IMG/VR virus record: IMGVR_UViG_3300024999_000137
Span: 1 to 54,815 of that record
Origin: a virus
Lineage: Duplodnaviria > Caudoviricetes
DNA: 54,815 nt
Strand: one strand, 5' to 3'
Shown here: positions 384 through 45,583 of the stretch, one piece after another
How positions within the stretch are numbered: position 1 is the stretch's first letter
Layout of the letters: every line of letters starts with the position of its first letter
Translations under genes and position numbers: made by a program
The notes under the pieces: model-generated
What the model was told of the DNA's origin: nothing
Databases searched by the model: none
What the model saw: the letters and a program-made list of their open reading frames with translations, nothing else

Positions 384-425
384 GGCTGCATCCAGTGTTA
401 AAATCGCTTCAAATTTTACTCGCAT
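1..425 (-). CDS. DUF4116-like 22-aa repeat protein, 5' part (runs off position 1 and continues at the other window end)
   Basis: ATG at 425 preceded by AAGGAG. Reads MRVKFEAILTLDAALKAVERNGDALQYVKDQTEAVCLKAVERNGYALRYVKDQTE... Missed by the ORF track because it has no stop on this side. Confidence 0.85.
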   Translation of the reverse strand, partial: MRVKFEAILTLDAALKAVERNGDALQYVKDQTEAVCLKAVERNGYALRYVKDQTEAVCLKAVERNGYALQYVKDQTEAVCLKAVERNGYALQYVKDQTEAVCLKAVENDGYALQYVKDQTEAVCLKAVERNGYALQYVKDQ

Positions 426-636
426 CCTTTTTCTCCTTTTTTAGTTGCAGCTCTTCACCGTTCAATTCCTTCATGAGAGCCTTTAGTTGTTTCGACTTGG
501 GGCCGTGCGTGTTGATACACTCCACAACCAGCTTCCTTTTCCCCTCTGCGGCCATGCCGTGAGCCGGGTTGCAGAGGCGAGATATCATTGTCTCTATCCG
601 CGTCAGCCTGGTATTGATTTCCTCTAACGTGGTCAT
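409..636 (-). CDS. hypothetical early protein (75 aa)
   Basis: ATGA overlap with the cro-like gene; GGAGG upstream. Confidence 0.75.
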   Translation of the reverse strand: MTTLEEINTRLTRIETMISRLCNPAHGMAAEGKRKLVVECINTHGPKSKQLKALMKELNGEELQLKKEKKDASKI

Positions 637-857
637 GCCTGCTGCCTCCTCTGCTTGTTTCGCTTTGCAATATACTTTTCAACTTCCCTGTGCAGTTCGT
701 CTTTGGTGCCGGTTTTCCAGACGGAAAAAGGAATTTTCGTGATCTTCTCTGCGGCGACGGCATTTCCGTCGCTCATTCTCGTAGCCGTGTTTATGGCCCG
801 AGAAAACGACACCGGATGCATCCCGATTTTCTCTGCGAGTTCTTTGTGTGTCACCAT
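633..857 (-). CDS. Cro-like HTH regulator
   Basis: THKELAEKIGMHPVSFSRAIN HTH; small; divergent from the repressor; GGAGG RBS. Confidence 0.8.
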   Translation of the reverse strand: MVTHKELAEKIGMHPVSFSRAINTATRMSDGNAVAAEKITKIPFSVWKTGTKDELHREVEKYIAKRNKQRRQQA

Positions 858-886
858 GCCTCCAGGATTAATTATGTGTTAATGAT

Positions 887-1067
887 ATGCTGTCTTGCGC
901 TAATTTTTCGATAACATACCTTGTTAATAACAGGCTGGCAATAAATATTTTCTGGATAAGGGTGAAATGTTAGCGCATTGCGCTAATTGTAGAATTTAAA
1001 CTATTGTTACTTCGTTATAAAAAAAATAACAAAAAAAGCTTGACTCGTTAGCGCAACGTGTTATTGT
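887..1067. promoter_or_regulatory. lysis/lysogeny switch region with operators and repressor promoter
   Basis: Perfect palindrome TTAGCGCA-T-TGCGCTAA at 970-986; half-sites TGCGCTAA at 896-903 and TTAGCGCA at 1048-1055; TTGACT(1040)-16 bp-TATTGT(1062) on the + strand. Confidence 0.75.
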
Positions 1068-1120
1068 TTTAGTGCGGATAAACCGCGTCAAAAAAAATGC
1101 TGGATAATTAAACGGGAGGG

Positions 1121-2221
1121 ATGCAGATGGAGAAATCAAAAGCGCCGGCTTACTTCGCGGCAGCCCTGCGGCAGAAGCTCAAAGAGTCGCCTTTATCACA
1201 AAAGAGGATAGCCAAGGAGATGGGTATGTCTCCGGTGACATTGAGCAGGCTGGCCAATGCCAAGCCGAAACACTCGCCGCACCCGGACAGCGTGGAAAAA
1301 ATAGTCCAGTATTTTGGGACAGAACATATTGATCTTATCAGCCTTGGCCGCGAAATCCTGGAAGGAGCGGCACACGTACCGGAAACGGCGCAGCCGGAGC
1401 TGTCCGTGGACAGCATCGACAACCGGCTGACGAGCGTCGAGCGGATTATGGTGGAACTCAGCCGTGAACTTGATGCGAGAAAAAAAGCTGAACTGAAGAC
1501 GAAAGAATATATGCAGAGATTAGCCACAGCGCAGGAGTTGATGAAAGTAGGGTACTTTCATTGCTCATTCAGCGGGGATGCCACATGGTCGTCGTCTTTT
1601 TATTCCGTTATGGGCATAGATAAAAGCGTGGAGCCGGTTTCATGGGAAAAATTCGTTTCGCTCTACGTCTACAAGAAAGACAGGAAGGCGGCATTCGTCG
1701 CGGTCAAGGGCTACCTGGAAGACAAAACCGTCTCCCAATATCACATAACGTTTAGGGCCTGCCGCCCTTGCGACAAGGAAATCAAAACCTACCGGGAGTT
1801 CGTACAGATAGATCGGGACGCGCAGGGAAAACCGATAGCCCGGTATGGATCAATCTGTGATATAACGAGCGATGTGCTGAAAAGCCAGCTAGTCGGAGAT
1901 TACGAACAGGCGTTTCTCACCCTGTTGGCCGATTCTAATTCATACCTGGTTGTTATCGAAAAGCAGGGCATGACGGTTATCCATCAAAACGAAGAGCATA
2001 TCAGGATAAAGGGAGACTTGATCGGGCAGAAATGCGACGCGTGCCAGGTCGCCGATACGTTTGATACAGGCACGGTCCATAAAGCGGTCAAGGTCATATC
2101 GTGCGCCGACGACGAGACTGTCCAGGTAGCCATTACTTCAATCCCGATATGGGACAGCTCCGGCGCCGTTGTCCGCGCCGTGGTTGTCATGCGCCCGATG
2201 CGACGAGAGGGAGACAAATGA
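1121..2221 (+). CDS. CI-like repressor: XRE-HTH, coiled coil and two PAS domains
   Basis: N-terminal SQKRIAKEMGMSPVTLSRLAN HTH; PAS_3-like RLATAQEL..VG...WS...DR...RDAQGKPIARYGSICDIT; second PAS ending SIPIWDSSGAVVRAVVVMR; position divergent from cro. Confidence 0.85.
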   Translation: MQMEKSKAPAYFAAALRQKLKESPLSQKRIAKEMGMSPVTLSRLANAKPKHSPHPDSVEKIVQYFGTEHIDLISLGREILEGAAHVPETAQPELSVDSIDNRLTSVERIMVELSRELDARKKAELKTKEYMQRLATAQELMKVGYFHCSFSGDATWSSSFYSVMGIDKSVEPVSWEKFVSLYVYKKDRKAAFVAVKGYLEDKTVSQYHITFRACRPCDKEIKTYREFVQIDRDAQGKPIARYGSICDITSDVLKSQLVGDYEQAFLTLLADSNSYLVVIEKQGMTVIHQNEEHIRIKGDLIGQKCDACQVADTFDTGTVHKAVKVISCADDETVQVAITSIPIWDSSGAVVRAVVVMRPMRREGDK

Positions 2222-3255
2222 GCGTAAGGCCGCACCCGACGAAATGGGGAAAAGATCCAGGGCAATGGTGGATTGTTGATACCGGCAGGGGGGGCGACCG
2301 GTTGCGCACCACATTCAGGGGCCAATTCGAGGATGCAAAAAAACTCGAAAACGATATCGTCGCCAACACCAACAAAACAACCCGTATAGCCCAGCACCTG
2401 AAGGTAATCGACATCGTTTTAGATTTCTACCAGCACCACGCGCAAGAGGTATCCCAGACGACTCTTGCCGACGTGCGTGTCGTCTTTTCTAGGCGCATCA
2501 TCCCATTCTTCGGCAGGTACAGGACCATGGAGCTCACGAAAGACATGATATCTGCATATAAGCATGAGCGCGTGGAGATCGGCAAGGTTAAAGCCAGGAC
2601 CGTGAACAAAGAGCTTTCATATTTCAGCAGCTTTTTGCGGTATGCCAGGGAATACAAAGGGGTTGAAACACAGCCAGGGTTCTCAATCACGATGTTCCGC
2701 CGCGGCAAAACAGTATCGCCGCCGGCGAAAGCCGTGTCTCCCAGGGTGATCGATGCCATGGCCGCCGTGATGGAGCCGCAATATCAGCTCATTTTTCTCC
2801 TTATGGCTGATGCCGGCCTGCGGCAGCGGGAGGCGTTGCACCTGACGGCAGAATCAGTAGACGAGCGCAACAAGACGATCCAGGTTTATGGTAAGGGTAG
2901 CAAGTACCGCGCCGTGCCTTTTACCACGGACAGGCTAGAGAATGCGCTGATGGCCGCGTTGGCGAAACGCCCGGCCGGGTATTTGTCGATAAACGAGATT
3001 ACGGGGAAACCATTCTATGGCATCAGGAAGGCACTGCTGAGGGCCGCACGGGCCGCGAATGTCCCGTTCCATATCCACCACCACTTGCTCCGGCATTCGT
3101 GCCTCAGCAACATGGCGATGGATGGAATGAACCCGCACGCCATCCAGCAGATTGCCGGCCATTCAAGTATCGAGACAACCAATAAAATCTATACCCACAT
3201 CAGACATGATTTTGTGCGTGAAGAGGTGGAAAAAATCAGGAGCAAGAATAGGTAG
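2218..3255 (+). CDS. int: tyrosine integrase
   Basis: Catalytic motifs GLRQREA, GKGSK, HLLRHS, AGHSS, IYTH; ATGA overlap with the repressor stop; adjacent to attP. Confidence 0.95.
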   Translation: MSVRPHPTKWGKDPGQWWIVDTGRGGDRLRTTFRGQFEDAKKLENDIVANTNKTTRIAQHLKVIDIVLDFYQHHAQEVSQTTLADVRVVFSRRIIPFFGRYRTMELTKDMISAYKHERVEIGKVKARTVNKELSYFSSFLRYAREYKGVETQPGFSITMFRRGKTVSPPAKAVSPRVIDAMAAVMEPQYQLIFLLMADAGLRQREALHLTAESVDERNKTIQVYGKGSKYRAVPFTTDRLENALMAALAKRPAGYLSINEITGKPFYGIRKALLRAARAANVPFHIHHHLLRHSCLSNMAMDGMNPHAIQQIAGHSSIETTNKIYTHIRHDFVREEVEKIRSKNR

Positions 3256-3435
3256 TTGACACAGTGTCAATTCGATGGCAAAAAAAGTACGCAAAAACAA
3301 AGAGAACTACGCGCTATTATAATTCCTAATCCTGGTGCCGCAGGTCCGATTCCTGCCGGGGGCACCAGCAGTACCAAGGGTTTCAAGACAGAACGGGCAT
3401 AAAGATTTTAGGGGAAAATTGACACTTATTGACAC
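3256..3435. repeat. putative integrase arm-type sites (TTGACAC x4)
   Basis: Inverted pair TTGACAC-A-GTGTCAA at 3256-3270; direct pair at 3419-3425 and 3429-3435; they flank the att core. Confidence 0.65.
3323..3367 (+). mobile_element. attP core = 3' half of tRNA-Arg(CCT)
   Basis: Anticodon loop TTCCTAA (3323-3329), T-arm GCAGG-TCCGATT-CCTGC (3340-3356), acceptor 3' strand CGGGGGC-A-CCA. No 5' half is present. Confidence 0.85.
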
Positions 3436-3571
3436 ATTCGATTTTAGAACATTTCGCAGCAGTACATGAGGCACGGCTTGTCGGTCCCTGTGCAGTGCAG
3501 CCAAAATACAAGATTGCCGGTGATATGGTTTACCCTCCATTTCCCCAAGCATCGAGGGCATGACGTTGTCG

Positions 3572-3952
3572 TCATCGCAAGCGACCATATCCCCAATGGA
3601 ACCCGGTGCCAGGCAGCCAACCGCCAGCCCGGACCCCGGTGAACATCGTTTGCGCCATGACAATGCCGGCAGCGCAAAAAACGTCGGCATAGAGCTGTCT
3701 ATCTGCGGCAAGCCGCTGTTCCATGGTGCCGCCGAGAAAATAAGCAACATCATGCCAGAAGCAGGCACCAGAAAGGTCAACTGCACAACTTTTCCACTCA
3801 TCCGGCCACATGGAGCAGCCATCGGAGAAGAAAACATCGTAGTTGGCAGGATCAGCTTTCTCCATCCGCTCGATGATATCCATCTTGCGGTGATATCTGG
3901 CCAACGCCAGTAGGTCATGCCATGAGATGGGAACTCCGATATACTGTTTCAT
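3572..3952 (-). CDS. prokaryotic phospholipase A2-like protein
   Basis: SDGCS...CFWHDVAY..GG...RLAAD motif with a PLA2-type His-Asp; ATGA-coupled to the amidase. Confidence 0.6.
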   Translation of the reverse strand: MKQYIGVPISWHDLLALARYHRKMDIIERMEKADPANYDVFFSDGCSMWPDEWKSCAVDLSGACFWHDVAYFLGGTMEQRLAADRQLYADVFCAAGIVMAQTMFTGVRAGGWLPGTGFHWGYGRLR

Positions 3953-4515
3953 CGACCAATCCTTGCGAGGCCGGCTACAACGCCGGCAACTATTTCGTTA
4001 ACGAACACGGCACCCTTCTCCGCTTCGGTATCGATGAAATATGGCTCAATGATGATTGCTGGGCAGCGAGTGCCGGAGAGGAAATAGTCAGGTGTGGCCT
4101 GCGGGTCAGGCGGCAGAACCATTTTATACCACCCTTCCTTCTCCCCGCGGTCGCGGAAACCTGTTGCCGCGATGATGCCGCGCTGGACCGCAGTGGCAAT
4201 CTTTTTCCCGGTAACAGATCCAGGACAGTAAAGTGTCTCGCATCCTTGGCCTCCTCCGGCGTTGAGATGGAACTCAATGGCGACATTCGGGCCGATCTCG
4301 TTTACCAGCTCAACTTTCCTCTTCAACGGCACTGAGCATACCAAGTGCGCTTGATGGCCGTGCAGCGACAGCAGCATCACCAGGCGGCCGGCCATGGCCG
4401 CAGCTACGGCATATTCGGTCAGCGTTCCGTTGCTGGCCCCCTGGGCATTCGGATGGTGTCCGGCACTGACGGCTATTTTCATATTCGGTCGCTCTTCCGG
4501 CGCGGGCAGCTTCAT
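3949..4515 (-). CDS. endolysin, N-acetylmuramoyl-L-alanine amidase (Amidase_3)
   Basis: AVSAGH, LTE, IEFHLNA, GCETLY, PAIIIEPYFID motifs. Start at 4515 (TAATG overlap) or 4482. Confidence 0.9.
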   Translation of the reverse strand: MKLPAPEERPNMKIAVSAGHHPNAQGASNGTLTEYAVAAAMAGRLVMLLSLHGHQAHLVCSVPLKRKVELVNEIGPNVAIEFHLNAGGGQGCETLYCPGSVTGKKIATAVQRGIIAATGFRDRGEKEGWYKMVLPPDPQATPDYFLSGTRCPAIIIEPYFIDTEAEKGAVFVNEIVAGVVAGLARIGR

Positions 4516-4793
4516 TATGGCGAGCCTCGATGCGCGATTGCCCATATTTTATAGACCGTTCCAGCTCCAAGAAGTAAAGCAAATCCGGCTACGACAAGGG
4601 TTAGAATTGACCGCCTTATCGTTTTTTTAGAATCTTCCATGATGGAGTTCATGTTCTCATAAAACCTTATCGCAGCATCCATCCTTTCCGGCGGAATACT
4701 ATAGCGGCAACTGATGGCATGATTAGTCGTTATGGCCTCCGCGATGGCAATAGCATCGGCATCGGTCAGCACACGTTTTCTTCGTTCTGTCAT
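4515..4793 (-). CDS. single-TM holin-like lysis protein
   Basis: C-terminal hydrophobic helix SILTLVVAGFALLLGAGTVY; directly upstream of the endolysin. Confidence 0.6.
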   Translation of the reverse strand: MTERRKRVLTDADAIAIAEAITTNHAISCRYSIPPERMDAAIRFYENMNSIMEDSKKTIRRSILTLVVAGFALLLGAGTVYKIWAIAHRGSP

Positions 4794-5017
4794 TATTCAA
4801 CCTTTTCCTTCTTGATTGATCGCATTTTACTCTTAACGACTGGAATCATGGCGCAGACTACGGCCACAGCAGCGCCAATGAACTCAACGCCCAGTTGTTG
4901 CTGTTCCTGGGTGAGGTCAACTCCCCTTGATGCCAGATAGGAGGCGACAACACCCATAATTATCACGGCCAAGACACGACCACGACTTGCGGATTTTCCG
5001 ATTGAATCTGTCATCAT
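4793..5017 (-). CDS. putative holin (2 TM)
   Basis: Two hydrophobic helices and a basic C-terminus; lies in the lysis cassette. Confidence 0.65.
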   Translation of the reverse strand: MMTDSIGKSASRGRVLAVIIMGVVASYLASRGVDLTQEQQQLGVEFIGAAVAVVCAMIPVVKSKMRSIKKEKVE

Positions 5018-5157
5018 TCCACCTTTGGCAATACAGAATTATTCATACTGCCCCTGTGACAAGCCAGACATATCTGCCATTGGTTTGTGCAGCTGGCACA
5101 GGGGCTGATGTAGCCCATCTCTTTCAGGAGCTTATCGGCAAGTTCGAGATCTATCAT
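5014..5157 (-). CDS. 47-aa Cys-rich microprotein (CxxC-x6-CxxCH)
   Basis: MIDLELADKLLKEMGYISPCASCTNQWQICLACHRGSMNNSVLPKVE; ATGA overlaps at both ends; below the ORF-track cutoff. Confidence 0.65.
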   Translation of the reverse strand: MIDLELADKLLKEMGYISPCASCTNQWQICLACHRGSMNNSVLPKVE

Positions 5158-5540
5158 GGGGAGACTGAGATTGTGACTTTCTTTTCAGGATTAACGTAGA
5201 AATTAATGGGTTTGACGATACGATCATGGGCCACCCACTTTACTTCAGTTGAATAATCACTTTCGTAACCATAGACATCATAAGCTGTGGCAGCAAAATA
5301 GTAGGTTGTTCCAACAGTAAGATTCCCTACTGAACCCTCAACATGACCGTCCACCATTGTGCCCATTTTCTGGTCAACGTCTAAAGTATACTTTTTTGAC
5401 ACCGTGCCATAGTGAATCTTATACCCGGCAAGACTTGTCTCTGTGTTGGGAGACCAGGAAAATTTGGCATCGGCAGCCAACACGGGAGAACAGGGCACAA
5501 AAGAAATAGCGAATAACAGTGATACGATAAATTTTTTCAT
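5154..5540 (-). CDS. secreted fibronectin type III domain protein
   Basis: Signal peptide MKKFIVSLLFAISFVPCSPVLA; WSPNTE..LAGYKIHYG...TYYFAATAYD..G.ESDYS Fn3 pattern. Confidence 0.85.
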   Translation of the reverse strand: MKKFIVSLLFAISFVPCSPVLAADAKFSWSPNTETSLAGYKIHYGTVSKKYTLDVDQKMGTMVDGHVEGSVGNLTVGTTYYFAATAYDVYGYESDYSTEVKWVAHDRIVKPINFYVNPEKKVTISVSP

Positions 5541-5548
5541 AATTCTCC

Positions 5549-7420
5549 TTACTCGAAAACTGATTTTAGAATGTTGCCGGAAGTCCCGCCGCTCAGATCA
5601 AGCACATCGTTTGTCCCGCCGACGAAGCCTTTGATTGTGGCCGACTTACCAGGCCAGCCTTTGACAGTCTTTGCCCCGGTATCAGCTAATCCGGACAAAT
5701 CCAGCGTACCGGCCATAGCCCCTTGCAGATAGATCTCAGCCCCGGCCCGCAGGTTGTAGCCGGTCCATGGATAGTCGGTCCAGGCGTTATAAGGGAGTGC
5801 TCTTGTGCCGTTGCCGCCATCAGCAGAGGCAACGTTGAAATAGAGCCCGCCAGGGTACTCATAGGCACCGATATCCGGGATGGTAAGCACGCTGGTGCCA
5901 TTGATATCCGTTGCCGGTGTGGCTTGATCGTGGATGCCGGCGATGATTGTTCCGGTGTTGATTGCTGGAGAGTTTGCTTGCAAATTGTAGTCAGTTGTCG
6001 AAACAAATAGGGGGTCAGCACTTAAAATATTAGTCACATTTTGCACGTCTGCTATCGCTCCCACTCCTCCCTGTACAATACTGTGATCAATGGTAATGTC
6101 ACCATTCGGACTTCCATCGATCTCGCTAACCCCATTACCCCAGTAGATATCATTGGCAAACGATGTGCCGTTGACATAGGTAACAGTGGCGTAGGTTTTC
6201 AGGCTGTTTCCTGACACAAGCGCAGTATTGTTGGTATACGTATTGTTCCCCCCTGTTACGGTATGGGTCTCAATACAACTGACTGCCCCACCAGATCGTG
6301 CCGCAGTATTTTCCACAAACAGACACCTATTCAAAACACTTGACTTTTCAGCTTCATCACTGCCGCCGAAATCAATTGCTCCCCCATCCATGCCTGATGC
6401 ATTGCGCCAGAATTCTGATCGTTGGCAACTCCCGTGTGCTCCAAAACTGTATTTCAACGCCCCACCTGCCGAATAGCCAAGGGTGACAGAATTTTCATTC
6501 AAACGGCATTGGTCGAGATGCCCGACAACCCCAGATCCAAAAAATATTATGGCCCCACCCTGCTGCTGACACGTATTGCGCTCCAGCGTACTACTGGTAA
6601 CGATGTGCTCTCCCACAGATCCGACATGGACAGCTCCACCGGATGTTACCGCTGTATTATCAGATAGGATTGAGTCCGTAATAGTCAACACGCCGCTGTC
6701 TATTTTTACTGCTCCCCCAACAGACGCATGATTGCCAAGCAGGGAGCACCCGATTAAGCTGACATCAGCAGTAAATCCTATTGGAGTATATAGACAGCCA
6801 CCATTCCTACTTGATATGTTGCCGATAAAATCAGAGTTAGAGATAATCATATCGGCTGACGATGCGTGTCGAATACAGCCACCGTCCTTATCTTCCTCTA
6901 CGTTGGTATTGATATTATTGTTGAATTTTGTCCTGATGATGTTTACAGATGTAGAAACATTAGGTGATACGGAAACCATACCAGATACTGCCAGCGTAGT
7001 GCTGTTATTTTGGCAGTTATTGATTTCGCAATCCTCAAGAGTTATTTCCGCCCCGCCGTTGAAATACGAGAACGGCGCAATAGTCAGACTATATAATGCT
7101 TGGGCTTTGACTCGGCGCCATGCAACACTTAACACAGCAGATCCGGACTGGAACAGATGGTGTGTATCTGCCCCATCTATAGTCGCTACACCTTCATACC
7201 CTGCTATTTCGATATGTCTGGCAATATTCCATAGCAAAATTGATTGTGTGGAATACACCTCCGGCAAGTAAAACGTCAAATTCGGTAGCAAATAAATAAT
7301 TGCATCCACGTTAGCCGTCCTGGCGTAAAGAAAAACAGTCTCCAGATTACCAGCTGTCGCTGGCGTTGCATACGGCGCTATAGGATTTGCCGGTTCCGCT
7401 GCTGCATAATATATTGTCAT
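5549..7420 (-). CDS. right-handed beta-helix protein (pectin-lyase-like / POMP repeat, choice-of-anchor-Q-like)
   Basis: Repeated N..A...GGA(I/V) motifs; DPLFV..DYNLQANSPAINTG...PDIGAYE. Confidence 0.8.
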   Translation of the reverse strand: MTIYYAAAEPANPIAPYATPATAGNLETVFLYARTANVDAIIYLLPNLTFYLPEVYSTQSILLWNIARHIEIAGYEGVATIDGADTHHLFQSGSAVLSVAWRRVKAQALYSLTIAPFSYFNGGAEITLEDCEINNCQNNSTTLAVSGMVSVSPNVSTSVNIIRTKFNNNINTNVEEDKDGGCIRHASSADMIISNSDFIGNISSRNGGCLYTPIGFTADVSLIGCSLLGNHASVGGAVKIDSGVLTITDSILSDNTAVTSGGAVHVGSVGEHIVTSSTLERNTCQQQGGAIIFFGSGVVGHLDQCRLNENSVTLGYSAGGALKYSFGAHGSCQRSEFWRNASGMDGGAIDFGGSDEAEKSSVLNRCLFVENTAARSGGAVSCIETHTVTGGNNTYTNNTALVSGNSLKTYATVTYVNGTSFANDIYWGNGVSEIDGSPNGDITIDHSIVQGGVGAIADVQNVTNILSADPLFVSTTDYNLQANSPAINTGTIIAGIHDQATPATDINGTSVLTIPDIGAYEYPGGLYFNVASADGGNGTRALPYNAWTDYPWTGYNLRAGAEIYLQGAMAGTLDLSGLADTGAKTVKGWPGKSATIKGFVGGTNDVLDLSGGTSGNILKSVFE

Positions 7421-8018: not shown

Positions 8019-11000
8019 TTATTGTTCCCGTGCTCTTTCCGCCCGTGACGGCCTCGTCATCTTCTTCACTGCCGCCCTGATTGAGCTTGGCTTGATCATA
8101 ACGATGTCCGGCCTTCCAGACCGTCGCACCTTCTCGTTGTACGCCTGGATATCGGCCAGGATGCCGGCCCATTCCGTCAAGGTCTGCTTCTCCGGGTTCT
8201 GGAGATAAAAGCGGCGGATTTCGGCATAGATTACGGTCCTCTTGTCGCTGTACCGGTCTACCACCTCTTTCTCATTCCACTGTTCTTCCCTCTTCGACGA
8301 AAGAGAAGAGGGATTGAAGGAGAAGAATCGGATCACCGCGTCAACCCCGTCGCCTTTCACCGGGGTGTCACCGTAGAACACCGGCATGTTCGTTGCCGTG
8401 GTAATCCCCTCCCGGTACTCCCGCGCCGCTTTGATCGGGGAGCCCAGCCCGGTCGGCAGCATCTTCTCTGCGCCCTTCATGATGTCGCCATGGAAGACAT
8501 CCTTCATCCCCCGGTACTCATCGAGGAAGACGCTCGCCGGGGCACCAAGCAGTTCGTTGACAGTAGTCGGTATAGCAAAGTTGATCTGCAGCGAGCCTTT
8601 CAGGTTCACTCCGCGCCCGCCCAAGCCCGCCACTCCGTGCCGCATCCACTCGCCGCCGCCGAATACCTCATCCGCCCATTTGTAGAGATCCTCTTCCGGG
8701 TCATCGAAGCCAAGGGCAAGGCCAAGGCCCTGGAGAAGAGGAGCCGCCGCGCTGGCCCCAACCCCGGACAAGATCGCCGGCGCAAGCAGCATGTGCGAGA
8801 ATGCCTTCCAGTCCCTGCGGTTGAACCCGAGATCGAGCATGGTCAGCATGTAGTTGTGGGAGAATTTCTGAAAGGTGTAAGCTGCCCTGATCAGGGTCTG
8901 GCCAGGCCCCTTCCCTTGAGCGAAATACGGCAGGGTCGCCTTGCCGTAAGTGCCATGGGATTTATCGGAAACCTCTTTCGCCAGGGCAAGAGCGTCCTCC
9001 TTGCTCATCCCATTGTCCTGCTCGGAGATGGCCTTGTAGGCCCCATAGATGGTTGCCGCCCGGTTGAACTTCTCCGTTGCCCCGAACATGAACATCGCGT
9101 AGCGCATGAGAGAATCGTAGGCATTGCCGAACTTGCCCCTGACGGCCTGGTATGCCTCCTGGTTGAATTGCGCCTCATCCCAACCCCTGGCGCTGATCTC
9201 CTCGAATATCGCCTTGTCATCCGAGAGAAGTTCGCCGCCCGTCCGGAACTTGCGGTAATCGTCAGCCGCCCGGGCGATGTGCTTGAAGGCGTCGGCGTAT
9301 GGGATTTTGCCGATGCCGTGCATGACTGCCGGCACGGCCATGACCATGTTCGTCAGGTTTACCGCCGCAGAGCTTACCCGGAAGCCAAGGAATTTCAAGA
9401 CAGCCAGGCCTTTGACGGTGCCCAAGATGCGGTCATAGGCTTCCTCGTTGCGCAGGTAGTGCTGCATGTGATGCATGACATCATGGTAAGCGTTCTTCTG
9501 TGTGGTCGGGCTCAGGCGCCGCTTATTGACCATCGCGACATAGTCCTCCCACTTGGCGTCGTCTCCATTGATCAGCTTGAAATCCTGCCATGAGATATCC
9601 CGGCCCGTGATAGCCAGGACCATATCTCGGGCCACATCGCGCTTGGCGATACCGGAGGCCATCCCCCTGGCATACTGCGCGGCAGCCTTCAGCGGATCTT
9701 CCTCGAAACCTTTCCAGTATGACGAGTGGTCCCGCTGAATCATCGAGGACCGGAAGCCGCGGGCCTTGAAGATGCCGGCAATCTGGTTCGTCACCGTCTT
9801 GTTCAGTTCCCTGGCCACATCGCTCTCGTTGTCTTTCGCCGTGGCCTCCTGCATAACCGCGTCCACAGCCATTACCAGCTTTGCGGCCTCAAAAACATCT
9901 TCAGAAACGCTTTCGTCTTTGGCAATCGTGACGTGATACCCTTGGGCCTCAAGCTCGCGATTCCGACGCATCATCGGGGTGGCATAGTTGGCCTTGTCCT
10001 TTATCCAGGCCATTTCCTTGGAATCGTCCTTGTAATTGTAAGCGTGGACATCGAAGTGCTCGCGGATGCCGTCCTCGCCCTTCTTGGTGGCGATCAGGGC
10101 GAAGCTGCCAGGGTCACGATGCCTCGGGAAATATGTCCCGCGCAGGTCGCCCATGGCCGCCAGCGCCATGGTCAGGGAGACCTCCACCTCATCCTCGCCT
10201 GGGGTATATTTTTTCACCACCAGGTCAACCCGCTTCGATGCGTCGACGAGCGCCTTCGTCGGGCCGTGCAGCTTGGTATGGGGATGATTCCACAAAATGT
10301 TGATGAGGTCCGGCCTTACCACGGCCTCGATCTTGACATAATGGTTGGCGTCCTCCTGGGTGTCGAACCAGCGGATAACACGCCCTGCCTCATTGTCCCA
10401 CACCGCATATGGCTTGGGCGCGGAGATCTTGACCTTCGGAGTGTCCACGCCGTTTGCCGCCGCCTCGTCCATCAAGGACCGCATCTGCACGGCCAAGTAG
10501 TCGAACCCCCGGTTGAATGATTCTCGCACGGAACGCCACACCTTGATTGTCTCCGAAGCAAAGCCAAGCTTGACGAGATCGGCCTCGCCGGCGTCGAGCA
10601 TTTCTGTGATGGCGTCAACCTCTTCAAGGTTCTCCTTCTCCACTTTCCCCTTCGGGCTCATGAGCTTCCATGTTCCGTCCTCGGCCATCTCGATCTTCCA
10701 GCCCTTGCCGGTACGATCTGCCTCAAGGAGTTGCGCCGCCAGCTTGCGATATTCTGCTGGGTTGCTGTCCTGCAGGGCCTTGAGCTTTTTAATTACGTCG
10801 CCAAGAATGTCGTTTTCAACCGCCACCTTCCGCTCGGTCTTGGAGAGTACCGCCTTCATGTACCGCCCTGCCGCCTCTACCTTCTTGAAATAATGCTCAG
10901 GGGTGGAAAACCAGCGGTCAAGGATGACATTGCTGTCCCGGTCGTAATGTTTTGACTTAATCATCCCGGTGGCGATCTCTTGCTGGTCCTCCTCAACCTG

Positions 11001-14000
11001 CTCATCAATATCTGTCTTGCGCGGCTTGGTCCCCTTCGGTGGCGTGTCGTCAGGTTTTTTAGGGAAAAGATCATGGTCGATGGTGATGGCGCCGCGCTCG
11101 TTGCCAAGCGGCGATTTCTGGTATGCCTTCTTGGCCTCCATGAAGAGCTTGCCGACGTGCTGCCGGAAGCTGGCCCATGCCTCGCCAAGGTGCTTCTTCA
11201 TCGCCCTGGTGAAGTCCTGGAATTTCCTGGAGCCGTCCGCATAAACCATATTTCCCAACCGGTGAAGATGGTCCTTGGCCGCGGCGAACGTCTTGCCCTT
11301 GACGATGACCTTGACGAGATCCTCCAGGATGAAGGCCCGCCCGGTTTCGCTGAGGAAATTGTCTCCTTCTTCCTTGCGGTTATTGGCCTCCAGGATCAGC
11401 AGCCGCCACCGGTTCGGGTCGAGATCCTTGGTCCGGCTGTCGTCCGCCGCAAGCTCTGCGGTGATCTCGTTAAGCCGTTGTTCCTTGCCGGCAAGCTCCT
11501 CTTCCCCTGTGAATCCTTCGCCGCCTGCCGCTTGCAGCTCTTCAAGCCGGATCTTGGCAATGTCGCGGTTGGCGTCGTTGTTTTTACGCATGGCAGCGAT
11601 GTTGCCTATCTGGTTGTTTAACCGCTGGACAAAACCGGCCGGGCTGAAATTGTCAAAATCGGTCTTGGAATAATACGTGCTCAACTTGTACAGCAGCGCC
11701 GTGGATACGGAGTCCACCGTGGTTCCGTCCGGGACGATGGTAAAGGAAGCTCCAAGCGGCTTGCCTGTCTTGTCTACGGCGGTTGACATCTCACCGAAAA
11801 TACCGAACCCTCGATACTCTATATCCATGAACGCATATTTGCGCGGCGAAGAAGGGTTCTTGAAGAATCTTTCAAATATGTCCTGGATAGAGTCAACGGC
11901 CCCCTCCCTGGTCAGCCGCGTTTCCTCATCCCACGCCTTTTTCGCCTCGGCGTTTGCCTTCTTGTGCTGCTTGTCGCCCTCCTCGCCTTCCTGGTATTTC
12001 TCCCTGGAGATCTCGACGAACGGCGCACTCTTGTAACCCGCCCCCCCGACCACGATATCAAAATGCCCCTCTTGTTTCTCCACCACGGCCTTGCTGTAAA
12101 TGGCCAGTGATTCCTCGATCTGATCGTAAAGCCCACCTGGAGCCAGCAGGTCTTGGTACTGCTCGGCATCCCTGGCGATGGTGTTGCGCTGGCGGTTCTT
12201 TGACTTGCGGATCGCCTTGAGCTTCTTCACCTCGCTGGACAGCTTTACCTGTTCCATGATGCGGGGATCTCCGGAAGCCGCCGCTTTCATCTCCGCCGCG
12301 CTGGCAGCCTCGCCGGTGATGTCCTCCACTTCGCGTCCCGATTCCTCGTTGAAATCCCGGAGCGATTCGACAACCACGGCCTTGCCTTCGATGATCTGCC
12401 AGCGCCTGGCGTCGTATGTCTCCTTGGTGGCGTAGCGGTTGATTGTCACCTCGAAGCCGTCAGGATCTGCGTTGAAGAACATGTTACCCTGTCGGAGAAT
12501 GCGGCCTTCACGCTGTTCAAGATCGCTCGGCCGCCATGGTGCGTCGATGTGGTGCAGGGCAACAAGTCTATTCTGCACATTCATGCCGGCGCCCATGAGC
12601 TGGGTTGACCCCATGAGGATACGGACATGGCCGGTTCTGACCTTCTCCATCAGGTCATCCTTTTGCTTGTCGGTGTTGGCGTCGTGCATGAAAGCTATCT
12701 GGTCAGGGCGGACGCCCATTTTGATCAGCTTCGCCTTCATGTCGTCGTAAACGCTGAACTCCGATTTCAGCATATCGAGAAACCCCGGAGGAAAGGCGTC
12801 GAGCTTTTCCATGGCGGCAATGTCGCCGCGCTCCGCCGCGTCCATCAGCTTCTGGTATGCCTCCCGCTGCTTGGCCACGGCCTTCTTGGGCGCCGACATA
12901 TCGAGGAAAACAAGCTGTGTGCCCTTCTTGGCGTCCCGCTCTTTATAAATGTCGAAGATTTCCCGCACTGCCCGGTTCACCTTGCTGCCCGGCTCATCCG
13001 GCGCACTCGGGTCAATCAGCCGCATATCCAAGGCTGCCTTGGTGGCGTCCGTGGTGAGCTTGAGCATGTTGTCTTTCTTTCGGTCCTTCGGATCCATGTT
13101 CTCGGCCCGCAAGATGACGGCCTCCATGTAGGCCCCCTGGATCTCGCTGCGATCCACGACAATCCGCTGTTGGGTGCCGCCTTTCATCTTCGGGATAGGC
13201 CAGCGCAGGCCCATAGCCTCGGCCATGGCAACAAGCTTTTTCTGCGAAACGACATCCGCGAAGGTCATATACAGGCTCATCAGCTCCGGCATATTGACAA
13301 ATTTGCGGAAGCGGGTCTTCTCCGCGTACCTCACCCCGGTTGCGTCAAGTTCCCAATCAGTATCCCGTTCCGCAAACACGTCGGACCAGGCGTCAAACGA
13401 GGCGATGCGCCGCTGAACCAGGGTGTCGTACTGCATGAACCGCTGCATGGAAAACATTTCCGCCAGGCTGTTGCTGACCGGGGTGCCGGTGGCGAGAAAC
13501 ACCCCCCGCCCCTTGTTGGCCTGCTGGATGATGCGGGCTTTGATGAACAGGTCGGTCGCCATCTGCGAGCCGGTGGTGTTGCCCAAACCTGGCGTTGACC
13601 CCTTGCGGGTGGCAAAGCCTAAGTTTTTGAACTCGTGAGCCTCGTCAACGAAAACGGCATCAACCCCCATCTCCTTGAAGTCCATCACCGTGTCCTGCTG
13701 CTCGGCGATAACCTTGAGCTGGTCTTTCAGCTTGTCCCGTTTGTTCTCCATCTGTTTGACGATGCTGCGCGGCGCCGCATCCTGTGCCGCCTCCCGGATG
13801 GCCGCTTCATATTCGGCGATCTGCTCACGGATATATTCGCGATGCTCTGCGGCCGGCACACCTATTTTCTTGAAAGAAGAGTGCGCCACAATGACCGCGT
13901 CCCAATTACCCGTTGCTATCCGGGAGAAAAGCTTCTGCCGTTTCCCCTTGGCGAAGTCAGACTTGCCGGCTGCCAGGATATTGGCTCCTGGGTAAAGCCG

Positions 14001-17000
14001 GTAAAAATCAGCGGCCCATTGTTCAATCAGATGGTTCGGCACGACGAAGAGCGGCTTGTTGACCAGGCCCATCCTCTTCATCTCCATGGCTGTGGCGACA
14101 AAGGCAAAGGATTTTCCTGCGCCTACGACGTGGTCAAGCAGCACCATGCCGTCCTGGATGGCCCGCCATACCGCATTTATCTGATGCACCCGCAGCTTGA
14201 TACTTTTCGCCATACCGGAAAATGTCATGTGCCCGCCGTCAAATTTCCGTTTGGCATGGGTGTTGTAAAGATCGTTGTATATCCTGCCATAGGTTTTCCG
14301 ACGCTCTTTCGACCCCGGCCCGTTCCACAACCATTCCTCGAACTTGGCCCGGATCTCCCCGGCTGCGCTGTTGGCCGCCATGGTTGCCTCGATATCGTTC
14401 TTGCCTTCCCAGTTACGAATGACGATGGACGAGTTTGTGATTAACTTCTCCATCAACGTCTCGGCCCCCATGTGCTCGGTGCCGTGCTCTTTGCTCTTGG
14501 CCCGGTTCCCGGCAGAGACTGAGGCAAACCACCGACCCAGCTTGTCGTTGTATTTTGCGACAACCTGGCCGTCCAGGAGATGATCGGCGAATGAGTCAAA
14601 GACCTCCTGCGTCAACCAGGGCGAAGACATGAAGGCCCGGATATCTTCCGGGGCGATATCTTCAGGCTGCACCTTCTTGAGCGCCTCGACGTTCTCCCGG
14701 AAACGCGGGTCATTGATGGCTGCCTGTTTGGCGGCTGACAGTTTCGCCTTCACGTTGCCGGAAAGGTACTGGTCCTTGGTGACGTAGCCGTCTTGCGGGT
14801 CTTCATAGATCGCGTCGCCAAGCTCGTTGACAAGGTACTCTTCCGATTTGCCGGTGAGCTCCATCATCCGGGCCATGTCCACCGTACCGGATTCGTTCAG
14901 ACTGACGAGCAGGGCATCCGTGCCATTTTCAACTTTCTTGATCTCTTTATCAGGGTTGATTACCCGGTCAAAGAATATGGCGGCCTTGTCCGCCGACGGG
15001 CCGCGCTTCTTCTCGCCTGTCTTCTTGGCAACCGCCGCCGTGATGCCGATGTCGAAATTTTCCTCTAGGGCGAGGAGACGCGGATAGTCTGGATCTGCAG
15101 CCAGGGCCGACTTGTTGCCCTGCATGTGAAAGAAGCTGTGCTCCGCGACAAATGCGTCGTATTTCTGGTTGAGCGTTTGCCGTAGCCGGTCCATCCTGGC
15201 GCTGTTTCCTGCTACGCTGGACTCCTCACTGATCAGGTCGGACAATGCATTTCTGACCGGGATGGCGGCCTTTACCTTTTTTTGCTGCTCCGCCGTGAGA
15301 ACAACGTCGGCCTTCTCCCCGGCTTTCCACCTGGTAGGCGGTCCGGACACGGCGGCCCCGTTTTCGTCTGGCATCCGCATCCGCACGGCCCCGCCCTTGG
15401 CAATGAAGAATCCATTGACCTTGGTCCCCTGGGGAATGTCGCTGTCTGCCTTGATAGCCACGGATGGATCAATGAAAGATGTGGTCTTGGTGAAGATGCC
15501 TTCCGGTAGCGACTTGATGGCCTCGGCCAGGTCGTCGGCCAGGTTGCCGCCCTCCCTCGGGGAAAGCGTCGGCAGGTCTGCCCGGTACATGGAACCCTGA
15601 CGGGTCATGGAGCCAAGCATCATGTGTGGATTTGCCGCGAAGTATTGGCTTACCGGGATGGGCTCGCCGCCGTTCTGGTCAGGCACGGTCGTGGTCTTGA
15701 CCCACTCGTTCGCGCCGATGGCTGCCGCGTCCCATTCAAGAGGGGCCTGGCGTTTCTGGAAAAATACGATGTCGGTGGTGACGGTGGTGCCGGTGTTGCC
15801 AAGAAAGGCGGTATCGGGCAGGCGGATGGCCCCGAGAAGTTCAGCATGGCGGGCCATCCATATGCGGTCATCCATGGCACCCTTGTCCATCAGGCTGTTC
15901 GACACGACCATGGCCGATATGCCGCCAGGGCGCAGGGCATGAATTGCTTTGGAGAAAAAGAAGTTGTGCAGGCTCTGGCGTAAAGGCTCACCGTTGATCC
16001 CGAGAGCGGTAAAGCCTTTGTCACGAACCTTCAGCTCGGAAAACGGCGGGTTGCCGATGGCGAAGTCAAAGGAACCTTCCTTGAGGGAAACATCCTGGAA
16101 GCCGATGGGGGCTGAGATATTGGCGTTGGGGTAAAGCAGCTTGGCGATGCCGCCCGTGATGATGTCCAGCTCTACGCCGGTGACGGTGGTGCCGCTGCGG
16201 AAAGAAGAAGGCATGAGGCCGACGAAGTTGCCGGCGCCCATGGAAGGCTCAAGCATCCGGCCGCCGCGCACGCCAAGACGCCGCACGGCTGAGTAGATCG
16301 CGTCAACCACAACAGGGGAGGTGTAAAAGGCGGTGCGCGAAGAGCTTCTTGCTTCCTCGAACTCTTCGCGGGTCAGGAGTTTTTCAAGCTCACGCCTCTT
16401 GCCGGCGAGGCTTTCGTTCTGGGTGTTGAATATGCCGTTGAGCCCGCCCCATCCTGAATAGAGAGCGAGCTTGCCCTGCTCTGCGGCGGTAGCTTTACGG
16501 CCAGCGGATTGCAGGGTCTTCATGAGGCCGATGGCCCCGAAGTTGTCGCTTATCCGGCGAGACTGGCCCCGCTTGTAAAGGGCCTCGATGTCTCCACTGG
16601 TAATCCGGTAATTGCCGGCTACGCGACCATCAAGCCCGGTTCCATCAAGGTTTTCGGGTACATCGTCTGCCTGATCTCCGCCATCGCTTCGGCTTCCGTC
16701 AGCCCCCCGGCCATCAAGCCCTGCATCTCCAGGAAGGCCAGCTCCGCCGCCGCCTGCATTATCTTGATTTCCCTTTCCGTTGCCAGGTGCGGCTGCTTCT
16801 GGCGAGACTGTGACCACTTCGTCAGGATTACCCGGAAGATCTTGCTTTGGTCTATCGGCTCCCTGTTGTCCATTTTTTTTGTCCCCCTTCTCTTTAATAT
16901 CAGATGTTTCCGCCTGGTTGTCAACAGGTTCCGATGTCCAAGCCCCTTGTTTTTCACTCACCCACGCCTTGGCATACGGGCGGATATTGGCGCCGAAGTT

Positions 17001-39653: not shown

Positions 39654-40097
39654 TCAGCCACGGATAATCCTCCGGGTGAAAACAACCTCGACAGCACCAT
39701 CCACTTCCAGCTTGTCGCTGAAAAGCTTGATGTGCTTACCCAACAGTTCACACCCTTTCATCACAGAGCTTGGGTCGAACTTCCATTCCCCTGTCGGGTT
39801 TCCCTCGCGGTCAAAGACCTGCATCCCCTGTCTGCATCGCTCCACGGTGTCTTTGATCGTCCCGAGGACATATTCCGCCGTAATCTCTGTTTTCTCGGAC
39901 CTTTTTGCCATCAATCGCTGAATTTCGGCCTGAATGTCGGCAATCGTCAACAAACGCTGCCCTTGAGATCTCGCAGTTTTTATGCTGTACCCTGTCCTGA
40001 TTGCCGCCTGCGTAGCGTTTAAATCACATAAATATTCCTCCACAAATCGTCGTTGTTTCAGGGTGAGTTCTCTCGTTGTGCTCTTTTTATCGCTCAT
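39654..40097 (-). CDS. terS: terminase small subunit
   Basis: LTLKQRRFVEEYLCDLNATQAAIRTGYS..TA...GQRLL; ELLGKHIKLF. Confidence 0.95.
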   Translation of the reverse strand: MSDKKSTTRELTLKQRRFVEEYLCDLNATQAAIRTGYSIKTARSQGQRLLTIADIQAEIQRLMAKRSEKTEITAEYVLGTIKDTVERCRQGMQVFDREGNPTGEWKFDPSSVMKGCELLGKHIKLFSDKLEVDGAVEVVFTRRIIRG

Positions 40098-40162
40098 AGC
40101 CTGGTATGTTACCTGCTCAAGCCGTAAAAATTAAACAAAATAATCACGGCGATAACGAGATG

Positions 40163-40236
40163 TTAGCGCAGCACGTTAATTTATTTTTAATTTCGCGTTA
40201 TTTTGTATTGACGTATTAACTCTGGATGAGTAATAT
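40163..40236 (+). promoter_or_regulatory. sigma70 promoter with upstream repressor-operator copy
   Basis: TTGACG(40208)-17 bp-TAATAT(40231); TTAGCGCA-G-CACGTTAA at 40163-40179. Confidence 0.7.
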
Positions 40237-40297
40237 TACATCAAGACCAGGGCAGCCGGGGACGGCAGAGAGAAACCAAAACAGCGAGGAGACGAAC

Positions 40298-40615
40298 ATG
40301 AAGGCGATAGAAGGCAGAACAGAAAACAGGGAAGAGTGGCTTTGCACCTGCGCAGAAGCGGCCGCGCTCATCAAGAAGGCTCCTAAAGGCAGCCGGTTCC
40401 TAATCCATATCAGGATCGACACCCCTATCATCGATGAGGAAGAAAAATTCTTCCGCTCCGGTGCCAGCGCCTTCACCACAGTTTCCCGCAAAGAGGCAAT
40501 CAGGATCGTGACAGGATCGATAACAAGCACGCTGGAAGGCCGTGGAGCCAGGTTGCCGATCAGGAGCTACAGCTTCACGTCCCACCCAAATACAAAAATC
40601 TACTGGATCGGTTGA
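40298..40615 (+). CDS. hypothetical protein (island gene 1)
   Basis: GAGGAG RBS before ATG 40298. Confidence 0.75.
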   Translation: MKAIEGRTENREEWLCTCAEAAALIKKAPKGSRFLIHIRIDTPIIDEEEKFFRSGASAFTTVSRKEAIRIVTGSITSTLEGRGARLPIRSYSFTSHPNTKIYWIG

Positions 40616-40626
40616 GGAGGGAATCA

Positions 40627-41328: not shown

Positions 41329-41346
41329 CCATCACAGGAGACAATC

Positions 41347-44549: not shown

Positions 44550-44798
44550 TTAAACCGGCTTCTCCATCCCGGCCAGCTCCGCCATACTCCCCAGCCGCAT
44601 ATCGACAAAGGTGGAGAGTACTTCAATGCCGTTCATCAGGCTGTGCTTGATAAAGCCGTTGCCGCGCAGTGAGTTGTCGCTGCCGGCGTCGTCTTCATCT
44701 TCCAGGATTTTTTCTAAAACCTTGCCAATGCCCATCATGGCAGTATTGGCCCGGTTCAGGTCTTCGATAATCAACTTGAGGTCGTTGGACTTGATCAT
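44550..44798 (-). CDS. hypothetical protein downstream of the antirepressor
   Basis: ATGA overlap with ant. Confidence 0.7.
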   Translation of the reverse strand: MIKSNDLKLIIEDLNRANTAMMGIGKVLEKILEDEDDAGSDNSLRGNGFIKHSLMNGIEVLSTFVDMRLGSMAELAGMEKPV

Positions 44799-45583
44799 GC
44801 CGTTGCCCCCTGCGCGAAAACCTGAGCGAGCTTGGCAAGGCCTTTCGGGGTAATTAAGACGTGCTCGGTTATTTTCTTGGTGCCGTCACCTCTCGTTACC
44901 TCAGTGACTTTGTGCTCAACAAGGCCTTGCTGCACCTTGTCCTGATACCCAAGCCACCCTTTGCCGCCAGCCCGACGATAAATCCACTTGGCAACCCCGG
45001 AAAGATACGGGAAGAGGACAACTTGCGGCTGCACCTGCAGAACCTTGGCCGCGTCGGTGATACACATGGAAGATGCTGTAGCTGTAGCAATCAGGTCAAG
45101 GGCCGTGGCCTTGGGCAGGAGGATTTTCTTTTCCTCCTCAAGGTCAAGCACTTTGGTGGTGTAGGTCAGCAGCAGGCCGCGCATGGCTGCAGGATCGTTA
45201 AGGTAGGCCATCGGGTCAATGGTTTGCTTGGCTTGGCGCTCGCAAGCCAGGAAGTACAAACGGGCCTCTTTGCCCTTGTCGTTGCGCTCGACCATGGACA
45301 GTTCTTTGGCCATGTCCAGGGTCAGGTGGTATTCGGTAATCTTCTGCGCCCTGGCTTTTGGGCTTCCCGAAGTTGGGGTGCTCAAGTCTTCCACAACTAC
45401 GAAGTCTTGCCCTTCGGCAAAGCCGAACTGCCCAATGCGGTCTTTGACCCAATCTGTAAACTTCTTTCCAATCTCAAGGAAGGCGTGAAGGTCTCGGGCG
45501 TTTACCGTGTTGGCCTGCTGGCCGTCAATCTGGTCTTTGGTGATGGGGATTAATGCAGTGGTGGGAATATTGACGTTGCTCAT
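44795..45583 (-). CDS. ant: antirepressor (AntA/AntB plus KilAC/ANT)
   Basis: VNARDLHAFLE..F.DW...GF.EG.DF, YHLTLDMAKELSMVERN.KG..AR.YF; C-terminal ITDAAK.LQ...ITPKGLAKL. Confidence 0.93.
   Translation of the reverse strand: MSNVNIPTTALIPITKDQIDGQQANTVNARDLHAFLEIGKKFTDWVKDRIGQFGFAEGQDFVVVEDLSTPTSGSPKARAQKITEYHLTLDMAKELSMVERNDKGKEARLYFLACERQAKQTIDPMAYLNDPAAMRGLLLTYTTKVLDLEEEKKILLPKATALDLIATATASSMCITDAAKVLQVQPQVVLFPYLSGVAKWIYRRAGGKGWLGYQDKVQQGLVEHKVTEVTRGDGTKKITEHVLITPKGLAKLAQVFAQGATA

Follow-up and report, generated by a model that had tools for sequence, protein, structure and literature searches.

A candidate phage immunity repressor with a tandem PAS C-terminal module in a groundwater virus genome

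The virus record IMGVR_UViG_3300024999_000137 (Duplodnaviria; Caudoviricetes) comprises 54,815 nucleotides, the whole of which is referred to below as the window. It carries, at the position of a phage lysogeny repressor, a gene whose product appears to combine an XRE-type helix–turn–helix (HTH) DNA-binding domain with a long helix and two PAS domains. From sequence and predicted fold, we interpret this protein as a real, rare and new type of phage immunity repressor in which the tandem PAS forms the C-terminal module and for which a role in sensing is plausible. The coordinates of the features discussed are collected in Table 1.

Repressor-position gene and divergent control region

The open reading frame (ORF) spans positions 1121–2221 on the plus strand and is open from an ATG at 1121 (366 aa). 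A ribosome-binding site (RBS), GGGAGGG at 1114–1120, touches this ATG and lies 6 nt before a second ATG at 1127; because of this contact, and because the database gene call is 364 aa, the second ATG is the likelier start. The N-terminal domain passes the HTH_3 profile of Pfam with 30.8 bits (residues 16–69, cut-off 23), and AlphaFold2 predicts helices at residues 8–22, 24–33 and 38–46 with a predicted local distance difference test (pLDDT) score of 67–75. Its best matches in PHROGs are families of transcriptional regulators and repressors (phrog_2967, E 3e-9; phrog_8; phrog_3).

The repressor-position gene is divergent from a gene for a small cro-like HTH protein, which heads the block containing all early and replication genes, and the two share repeated operator-like sites. 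The octamer TTAGCGCA occurs five times in the window against 1.32 occurrences expected, a count attained by 1 of 100 shuffles; all five copies are intergenic, and four of them lie within the 263-bp control region. Two copies form the exact 17-bp palindrome TTAGCGCATTGCGCTAA at 970–986, and an imperfect site at 1048–1064 falls inside the promoter-like site of the repressor–integrase operon (1040–1067). The recognition regions of the repressor and the cro-like protein are 36% identical over 28 aa (E 3e-5), as in a CI/Cro pair. Such an arrangement, with the cro-like gene diverging on the far side of repeated palindromic sites, is typical of classic phage immunity regions. On the other side, the stop codon of the repressor-position gene overlaps the ATG of a tyrosine integrase gene (ATGA at 2218–2221). 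Scans of 36, 14 and 44 ORFs revealed no S24 protein, no ImmA-type protein and no second CI-like protein, and PADLOC assigned no defence family to the repressor or to the neighbouring genes. A preliminary description of this DNA, made from the letters alone, had placed the gene in CI position and named a palindrome at 970–986; the palindrome is exact, and the cro-like neighbour, the operator-like repeats, the integrase and a candidate attP site all agree with that placement.

PAS domains, cysteines and relatives

The C-terminal 260 residues are filled by the helix and two PAS domains (Pfam, AlphaFold2), and the S24 peptidase of lambda CI and LexA is missing. Neither S24 nor HisKA/HATPase nor GGDEF is among the 11 Pfam families matched by the protein at E ≤ 1, which upholds the earlier claim that it has no autoprotease, kinase or GGDEF output. 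An AlphaFold2 model of the whole protein, run on a 22-row alignment, has a mean pLDDT of 70.6 and a predicted template-modelling score (pTM) of 0.43. The top Foldseek match to this model in the PDB is the PAS-A/PAS-B pair of FixL (8js5, E 6.9e-12, 246 columns), and the other leading fold matches are also tandem-PAS proteins: DosP, Brucella LOV-PAS-HK, bHLH-PAS factors, NifL and MmoS. Query-normalized template-modelling (TM) scores of the PDB matches over the whole chain are low (0.24–0.29) because the domain arrangement differs. The C-terminal region models as two PAS domains, and the four-part architecture of the preliminary description holds, with HTH_3 and PAS_3 over their Pfam cut-offs, a helix, and a second PAS recognized by predicted fold. 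Its coiled coil stands in part: AlphaFold2 predicts a single helix spanning residues 105–140 after a low-confidence linker, and the heptad score has its maximum at residues 96–123, but this maximum is reached by 3.2% of 500 shuffles and was obtained with a score of our own rather than a dedicated coiled-coil predictor.

The first PAS domain (PAS1) passes the PAS_3 profile of Pfam (residues 155–241, 29.8 bits, cut-off 25.6) and is modelled by AlphaFold2 at a pLDDT of about 90 over residues 141–250, with strands at residues 143–149, 154–156, 206–214, 221–232 and 238–247. When 1.84 billion representatives were searched exhaustively with phmmer, 5505 matched at E ≤ 1e-3; among the 150 matches listed are the query and 148 proteins of 591–3156 aa that match the PAS region. 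Several PAS_3 domains are present in all seven of the matches scanned and HATPase_c in four of these seven, and PAS1 is ~26–32% identical to the PAS_3 units of long sensor proteins. A PDB sequence search with PAS1 alone gave no match. A one-residue insertion in the domain gives rise to the pair C214-R-P-C217. The G+C content at third codon positions (GC3) is 0.61 in PAS1 and 0.63 and 0.65 in its flanks, and shows no trace of recent acquisition of the domain.

The second PAS domain (PAS2) is recognized by its predicted fold. An ESM Atlas model of residues 252–366 has TM scores of 0.77–0.81 to PAS_4/PAS domains over 104–114 residues, both sides of this comparison being predictions, and the AlphaFold2 model has strands at residues 275–280, 283–288, 320–328, 333–344 and 350–360 and a helix at 309–316, with a pLDDT of about 80 over residues 311–360. 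Searches with the PAS2 sequence only are weak: phmmer gave only P0094, a 229-aa protein considered below (26.5 bits), hhalign against a PAS_3 profile gave a probability of 1.7%, and a PDB sequence search returned only designed repeat proteins. The cysteine cluster KCDAC, reported earlier for the second PAS, corresponds to C305-x2-C308 (nt 2033–2044), and this C-x2-C is also kept in P0094, the sole relative; further cysteines are C328, C214 and C217. Where an Fe–S or metal-binding PAS would have three or four close cysteines, two, C305 and C308, are conserved with P0094. Most ESM Atlas structural neighbours of the PAS2 region come from Thermodesulfobacteriota, which fits a groundwater host for which redox matters.

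P0094, a singleton on a 1121-bp contig, is the one same-family relative found. It is 33% identical to the phage protein in the HTH (E 2e-17) and 25% identical in the C-terminal domain (E 3e-11), where DYEQ and C-x2-C are common to both, and it also carries the helix motif SVE..LSRELD. P0094 is without PAS1 entirely and has 12 extra residues that supply a third cysteine (C-x10-C-x2-C); for these two reasons the phage protein can be regarded as the P0094 type with a PAS_3 unit inserted and the Cys loop removed.

Further relatives were sought in several ways. A tblastn comparison (E ≤ 1e-3) with 50,697 phage records revealed no similar protein. Word-indexed protein searches with the whole protein, with P0094 and with residues 1–125 returned the query alone, proteins of the ‘longer’ and ‘shorter’ lengths being left out. 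Neither the repressor nor an alignment retrieved a relative from viral, genome or metagenome contigs, and locus searches starting from the integrase retrieved none. No paper on a PAS-fused phage repressor was found in the full-text literature, with subscription journals and bioRxiv supplements outside the scope of the search, and a term search of a 2026 review of SOS-independent induction gave no passage on PAS or sensor domains. The idea that the system has no described counterpart is consistent with both the phage records and this literature.

PAS domains of other kinds do occur in the collections searched. A profile of PAS_3 only retrieved two viral loci, neither of which is HTH-PAS: one (L003) encodes a hybrid kinase and adjoins a terminase-like gene, and the other (L002), on a contig of 250 kb, encodes a PAS-GGDEF protein with an EAL gene as its neighbour. 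The latter locus (3196–4906 of that IMG/VR contig) has the gene for PAS_3-GGDEF immediately after that for the EAL protein; the PAS is 62% identical to the query kinase PAS, and the genes look like a c-di-GMP signalling set on what may be a jumbo phage. A tblastn search of 72,556 plasmids gave five records, every match being PAS-only, and a fold search of BFVD at E ≤ 1e-3 turned up 19 viral proteins, most of which are kinases or short proteins with PAS. One of the 19, Cellulophaga phage phi19:1 gp108 (240 aa), which follows tail genes and matches no Pfam family at E ≤ 0.1, was rejected as a comparable repressor. Bacterial proteins combining HTH_3 and PAS account for 5 of 10 listed ESM Atlas clusters, with lengths of 209–652 aa and 51–69 members each.

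Proposed role of the tandem PAS and alternative explanations

We read the protein as a CI/C-type lysogeny-maintenance repressor of a temperate, integrating phage, sensing by the PAS module included, and assign this reading a probability of about 0.42. Its components differ in strength. The role as a repressor is likely, PAS-mediated oligomerization is nearly as well favored, and signal sensing by at least one PAS falls a little short of an even chance. In such a repressor, the N-terminal XRE HTH would bind TTAGCGCA half-sites, both in the palindrome at 970–986 and in a weaker site in its own promoter, and binding would silence the divergent cro-like lytic operon and autoregulate the repressor–integrase operon. 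The helix and the two PAS domains would substitute for the S24 peptidase/oligomerization domain of lambda-type repressors and hold a dimer or higher oligomer. RecA-stimulated self-cleavage is not expected, because the C-terminal part consists of a helix and two PAS domains and is without S24; in its place, the PAS input module would tune DNA binding in response to a cytoplasmic cue, candidates being the redox state, a small ligand and a metal or Fe–S centre at the Cys motifs. The apparent addition of a whole PAS_3 unit to a helix–PAS protein, as seen in sensor proteins, would favor sensing, as would the conserved C-x2-C. Precedents can be found in three sources: XRE regulators with a PAS-like ligand-binding domain, of the MltR/MmyB type, for control within one polypeptide (PMC3406030); FG214, an HTH-PAS haem switch (bioRxiv 10.64898/2026.03.15.711900); and OrpR, whose PAS binds Fe–S and has three cysteines, C52, C61 and C65 (PMC8359166).

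In a stronger form, which we put forward tentatively, the master repressor would itself be the sensor, forming a one-protein lysis–lysogeny switch at the TTAGCGCA operators that needs neither RecA nor an antirepressor nor a separate receptor. Dimerization or DNA binding would be altered by redox state, by a metabolite or by a metal or Fe–S centre at the CxxC motifs, and cell chemistry would induce (or hold) the prophage of an anaerobic groundwater bacterium. The three-Cys relative of 229 aa would then stand for the simpler, ancestral state, to which the phage version would have added another input.

Several observations weigh against a sensing repressor. PAS1 keeps the usual landmarks except that YKKDR replaces HPDDR, and the PAS_3 or H(P)(D/E)D..R group is called largely unstudied in a 2023 survey (PMC10468136). 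Solved relatives retrieved for the PAS_3 profile, which is made up mostly of kinase sequences, include PAS domains with no named cofactor, namely the second PAS of Brucella LOV-HK and the structural-genomics entries 3nja and 3mr0. PAS2 falls below the Pfam cut-off (PAS_9, residues 276–358, 19.2 bits against 27, E 0.0015), its residues 281–310, C305 and C308 among them, have a pLDDT of only 47–55 in the AlphaFold2 model, and relative to P0094 it is without the 12-residue stretch that bears the first of the three P0094 cysteines. Since the deleted stretch coincides with the low-confidence part, PAS2 is less convincing as a cofactor pocket, and a ligand pocket in the modelled domain is doubtful. 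The family is known from two members and conservation is therefore unusable, and no variants of the repressor gene occur among the listed contig pieces of the four sequencing runs, which come from one study. The three promoters (1040–1067, 913–941 and 882–911) are promoter-like by consensus match only, and the perfect palindrome overlaps no predicted promoter. Bacterial HTH_3 + PAS_3/PAS clusters in the ESM Atlas have the same domain order in their annotation. Finally, an Ant-family gene, recognized from its AntA and KilAC domains, provides a possible alternative route of repressor inactivation.

This antirepressor route is a serious rival to PAS sensing. The protein would be a lysogeny repressor with the helix and PAS domains as a mere oligomerization scaffold, in the part that the C-terminal domain has in repressors without S24, and induction would be due to the Ant-family protein or to a host protease; we consider this possible, though short of probable. 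Antirepressors inactivate repressors without S24 in the cases of 186 CI/Tum and P22 Ant, and a well-known pattern of this kind extends to cI and Qtip of VP882 (PMC12802170). The window has its own AntA + KilAC gene at 44795–45583. The leader of this gene is more stably folded than its shuffles (z −5.77, with 0 of 200 as good), forms a long, branched stem with a U-run after it, ~40 nt ahead of the ant RBS, and matches no family in Rfam. In the folding model it looks like an attenuator or a small RNA, and its strong, terminator-like fold suggests separately controlled ant expression. The cofactor-less PAS structures among the solved PAS_3-profile relatives and the truncated helical part of PAS2 also suit a scaffold. 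However, dimerization would need no more than the helix or the single PAS that P0094 has, which leaves the gain of a second complete PAS unexplained; ant lies inside the early lytic gene block and may act only after derepression; and the LexA box CTGT-N8-ACAG has no match in the window, although the LexA motif of the host may differ.

It is unlikely that the protein is instead a CII-like establishment activator of its own integrase operon or a prophage one-component regulator of host or accessory genes. The phage CII profile (Phage_CP76) matches residues 12–140 with 19.9 bits, below its cut-off of 26, and CII-like PHROGs are also weak matches (phrog_101, E 9e-4; phrog_725, E 0.01), whereas the best PHROGs are the regulator and repressor families given above. 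The fifth operator-like site precedes a cassette of no known family at 40226–42551, and VqmA-phi of VP882 is described as also regulating a host promoter (PMC12802170); nevertheless, no other repressor candidate is present among the ORFs scanned, and the divergent cro-like gene shares the recognition-helix pattern across the repeated palindromic sites. Very improbable is an origin of the PAS part as a decaying fragment of a captured host sensor kinase, with the HTH and helix as the working unit. Capture from a cellular gene is plausible in view of the identity of PAS1 to the PAS_3 units of long sensor proteins, and PAS2 has a deletion relative to P0094, yet the frame is intact over 366 codons, translational coupling to the integrase is kept, PAS1 is modelled at a pLDDT of about 90 and resembles its flanks in GC3, and P0094 retains the same C-terminal PAS.

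Should the sensing repressor prove correct, no shorter circuit from cell physiology to the lysis–lysogeny decision would be possible than a repressor that carries a PAS input of its own. It would come from little-explored phages whose subsurface hosts live where the environment varies mainly through redox shifts. A compact HTH-PAS-PAS switch could also be put to use as a genetic tool. Should oligomerization be the only task of the PAS domains, they would still be a new structural solution for the C-terminal domain of a phage repressor, of modest interest.

Phage genome, candidate integration site and sample

With its 54.8 kb assembled into a circle, the contig represents a complete podovirus-like temperate phage from groundwater. 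A 66-bp tandem repeat is common to both of its ends (1–383 and 54628–54815), and a minus-strand gene runs off both; the assembly is therefore circular and is broken within the repeat. Virion and lysis genes encode the small and large terminase subunits, a portal, a major head protein, an internal virion protein, an 1813-aa tail protein and an endolysin, and replication genes encode a DnaB-like helicase, a DnaD-like loader, SSB, RuvC, NinB and a Sak4-like protein. The nearest match to the large terminase (39% identity) is in Campylobacter phages, with epsilon15-like phages more remote, and by this sequence the phage appears only distantly related to known ones. The region is present in four sequencing runs, all from one groundwater-metagenome study and three of them possible sources of the contig, and no RNA dataset is among the runs that contain it. 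A single other letter occurs across 1509–3352, in X2/X3. The hosts of these subsurface phages are probably anaerobes.

The candidate attP core follows the integrase gene and resembles the 3′ end of a tRNA, although neither ARAGORN nor Rfam calls a tRNA there. In all four runs, contig pieces stop at 3351–3352 or begin at 3338, and depth in the bin containing the core is raised ~10-fold (266 against 23 in X1); in X1 and X3, the loose end past 3367 runs into unlike DNA. This pattern of breaks and depth fits an att core common to the phage and a more abundant host gene. Inside the integrase gene, 59 bp at 2925–2983 match the attP core annotated in actinophage RP3 with 84.7% identity (E 8e-8). Given its place within the gene and the likelier site at 3333–3367, this stretch was rejected as the attP core, and the match is taken as unexplained or due to chance.

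The fifth TTAGCGCA site is in the one further intergenic region of the window that separates divergent genes. Downstream of it and of a promoter-like site at 40208–40236 is the plus-strand cassette, around which the G+C content is lower (0.486 in 40001–42000) and which may be a moron or a lysogeny-expressed module. At 4800–6000, a region that covers an fn3-like gene (5154–5540) and the 3′ part of a 638-aa gene, contigs of all four runs have a summed depth of hundreds to more than 1000, many variant letters and several skipping joints; this tail-fibre-like region is common to many related sequences in the samples. A giant ORF in the structural gene block has an Eco57I-type methylase region (residues 1648–1732) and ResIII/SNF2/Helicase_C regions (residues 2283–2854) and matches the ‘DarB-like antirestriction’ family of PHROGs with 1780 bits, and its product is probably an injected anti-restriction protein. 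The 210-aa protein near the right end of the contig, whose C-terminus matches the PADLOC model MzaA (E 1.4e-12), may from its domains be a phage late-gene activator.

Table 1. Positions of the repressor locus and of other features in the window
Feature	Position	Strand	Remark
Repressor-position gene: XRE HTH, long helix, PAS_3, compact Cys-bearing PAS	1127..2221	+	364 aa
HTH_3 (Cro/CI-type) DNA-binding domain, residues 16–69	1166..1327	+	Pfam
Heptad-bearing long helix (coiled-coil/PAS N-cap linker), residues 96–140	1406..1540	+	motif SVE..LSRELD also in P0094
PAS1 (PAS_3 type), residues 141–250, with C214-x2-C217	1541..1870	+	unit missing from 229-aa relative P0094
PAS2 (compact PAS, PAS_4/PAS_9-like fold), residues 259–360	1895..2200	+	predicted fold
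Divergent control region, 263 bp	858..1120		four TTAGCGCA octamers
TTAGCGCA octamers	896–903, 970–977, 979–986, 1048–1055	−, +, −, +	control region
Promoter-like site, repressor–integrase operon, TTGACT-16-TATTGT, TG-extended	1040..1067	+	consensus match only
Promoter-like site, cro-like operon, TTGCCA-17-TATGTT	913..941	−	consensus match only
Second cro-side promoter-like site	911–882	−	consensus match only
cro-like 74-aa HTH protein	633..857	−	first gene of divergent (lytic) operon
75-aa ORF after cro-like gene	409..636	−	no family found
Tyrosine integrase	2218..3255	+	RBS GAGGGAG 6 nt upstream
attP-core candidate, tRNA-3′-end-like: T-arm-like hairpin and acceptor strand ending CCA	3333..3367	+	
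Fifth TTAGCGCA site, 2 mismatches to palindrome	40163..40179	+	between terminase small subunit gene (−) and plus-strand ORFs
Plus-strand ORF cassette: 129, 112, 68, 167, 234 aa	40226–42551	+	no Pfam or PHROG family
Ant-family gene: AntA N-terminal domain and KilAC domain	44795..45583	−	
Leader of Ant-family gene, 267 nt	45584–45850	−	folds at −103 kcal/mol
Giant 4342-aa ORF	8019–21047	−	within structural gene block
210-aa protein: HTH_3 (residues 31–70) and sigma-70 region 4 (141–189)	53382–54014	−	
DUF4116 repeat protein	1–425 and 54567–54815	−	22-aa units from 66-bp repeat, 5.8 + 2.8 copies; spans contig ends

Comparison with known systems

The protein belongs to the XRE HTH and PAS superfamilies and, by the tests run, is not of the lambda/LexA, MmyB, VqmA or CII type. 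It is like lambda CI/LexA in its XRE-type N-terminal HTH, its divergent cro-like gene and the repeated palindromic operators between them, but it has no S24 peptidase and ends in a helix and two PAS domains. An absence of S24 is nothing exceptional in itself: repressors of the P2 C/186 CI type, which are inactivated by antirepressors, are also without it. The likeness to these repressors extends to an operon shared with the integrase and an antirepressor-family gene in the phage; in contrast, no sequence relation to them was detected, the promoters here are back-to-back whereas theirs are face-to-face, and the C-terminus here is PAS. P0094 has the HTH, the helix motif and the Cys-bearing PAS in common with the phage protein, but has a single PAS with the C-x10-C-x2-C triad. 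Fe–S PAS proteins such as OrpR and NreB, the latter reportedly an Fe–S PAS sensor, are proteins of anaerobes and are similar in that several cysteines lie close together within the helical portion of a PAS domain; compared with OrpR, P0094 has three such cysteines, whereas the helical part of phage PAS2 keeps only C305-x2-C308 and its triad is incomplete.

The known routes of SOS-independent induction use separate parts, either a receptor with a small antirepressor (VP882), arbitrium peptide signalling or host stress pathways. According to PMC12802170, the separate PAS receptor VqmA-phi of VP882 activates the small antirepressor Qtip, which inactivates a conventional cI. Both systems would have a phage-encoded PAS transcription factor tied to the lysis–lysogeny decision and independent of DNA damage, but here the PAS is inside the repressor-position protein, whereas in VP882 it is in a separate activator. 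No VqmA-family relationship was detected by tblastn at E ≤ 1e-3 in the phage collection, in which VP882 is assumed to be present. MmyB and MltR combine an Xre-type HTH and a PAS-related sensor in one polypeptide and bind a palindromic target as dimers; as described in PMC3406030, they are cellular regulators of secondary metabolism in which a single enlarged PAS-like domain binds a fatty acid. The phage protein, in contrast, has two PAS domains of canonical size, a coiled-coil-like linker and a phage immunity context, and the Pfam model of the MmyB/MltR family is not among its hits.

The layout of a DNA-binding or output domain with PAS-A and PAS-B is that of bHLH-PAS factors, FixL, DosP, NifL and MmoS. 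For bHLH-PAS factors this is analogy only, as the DNA-binding domains are unrelated, and the haem or flavin ligands of the FixL, DosP, NifL and MmoS sensors are not implied for the phage protein. In function, the protein would most resemble the peptidase-less repressors of the P2/186 type that share an operon with an integrase, and its logic may be said to resemble that of one-component HTH-PAS regulators and, by analogy, of bHLH-PAS factors.

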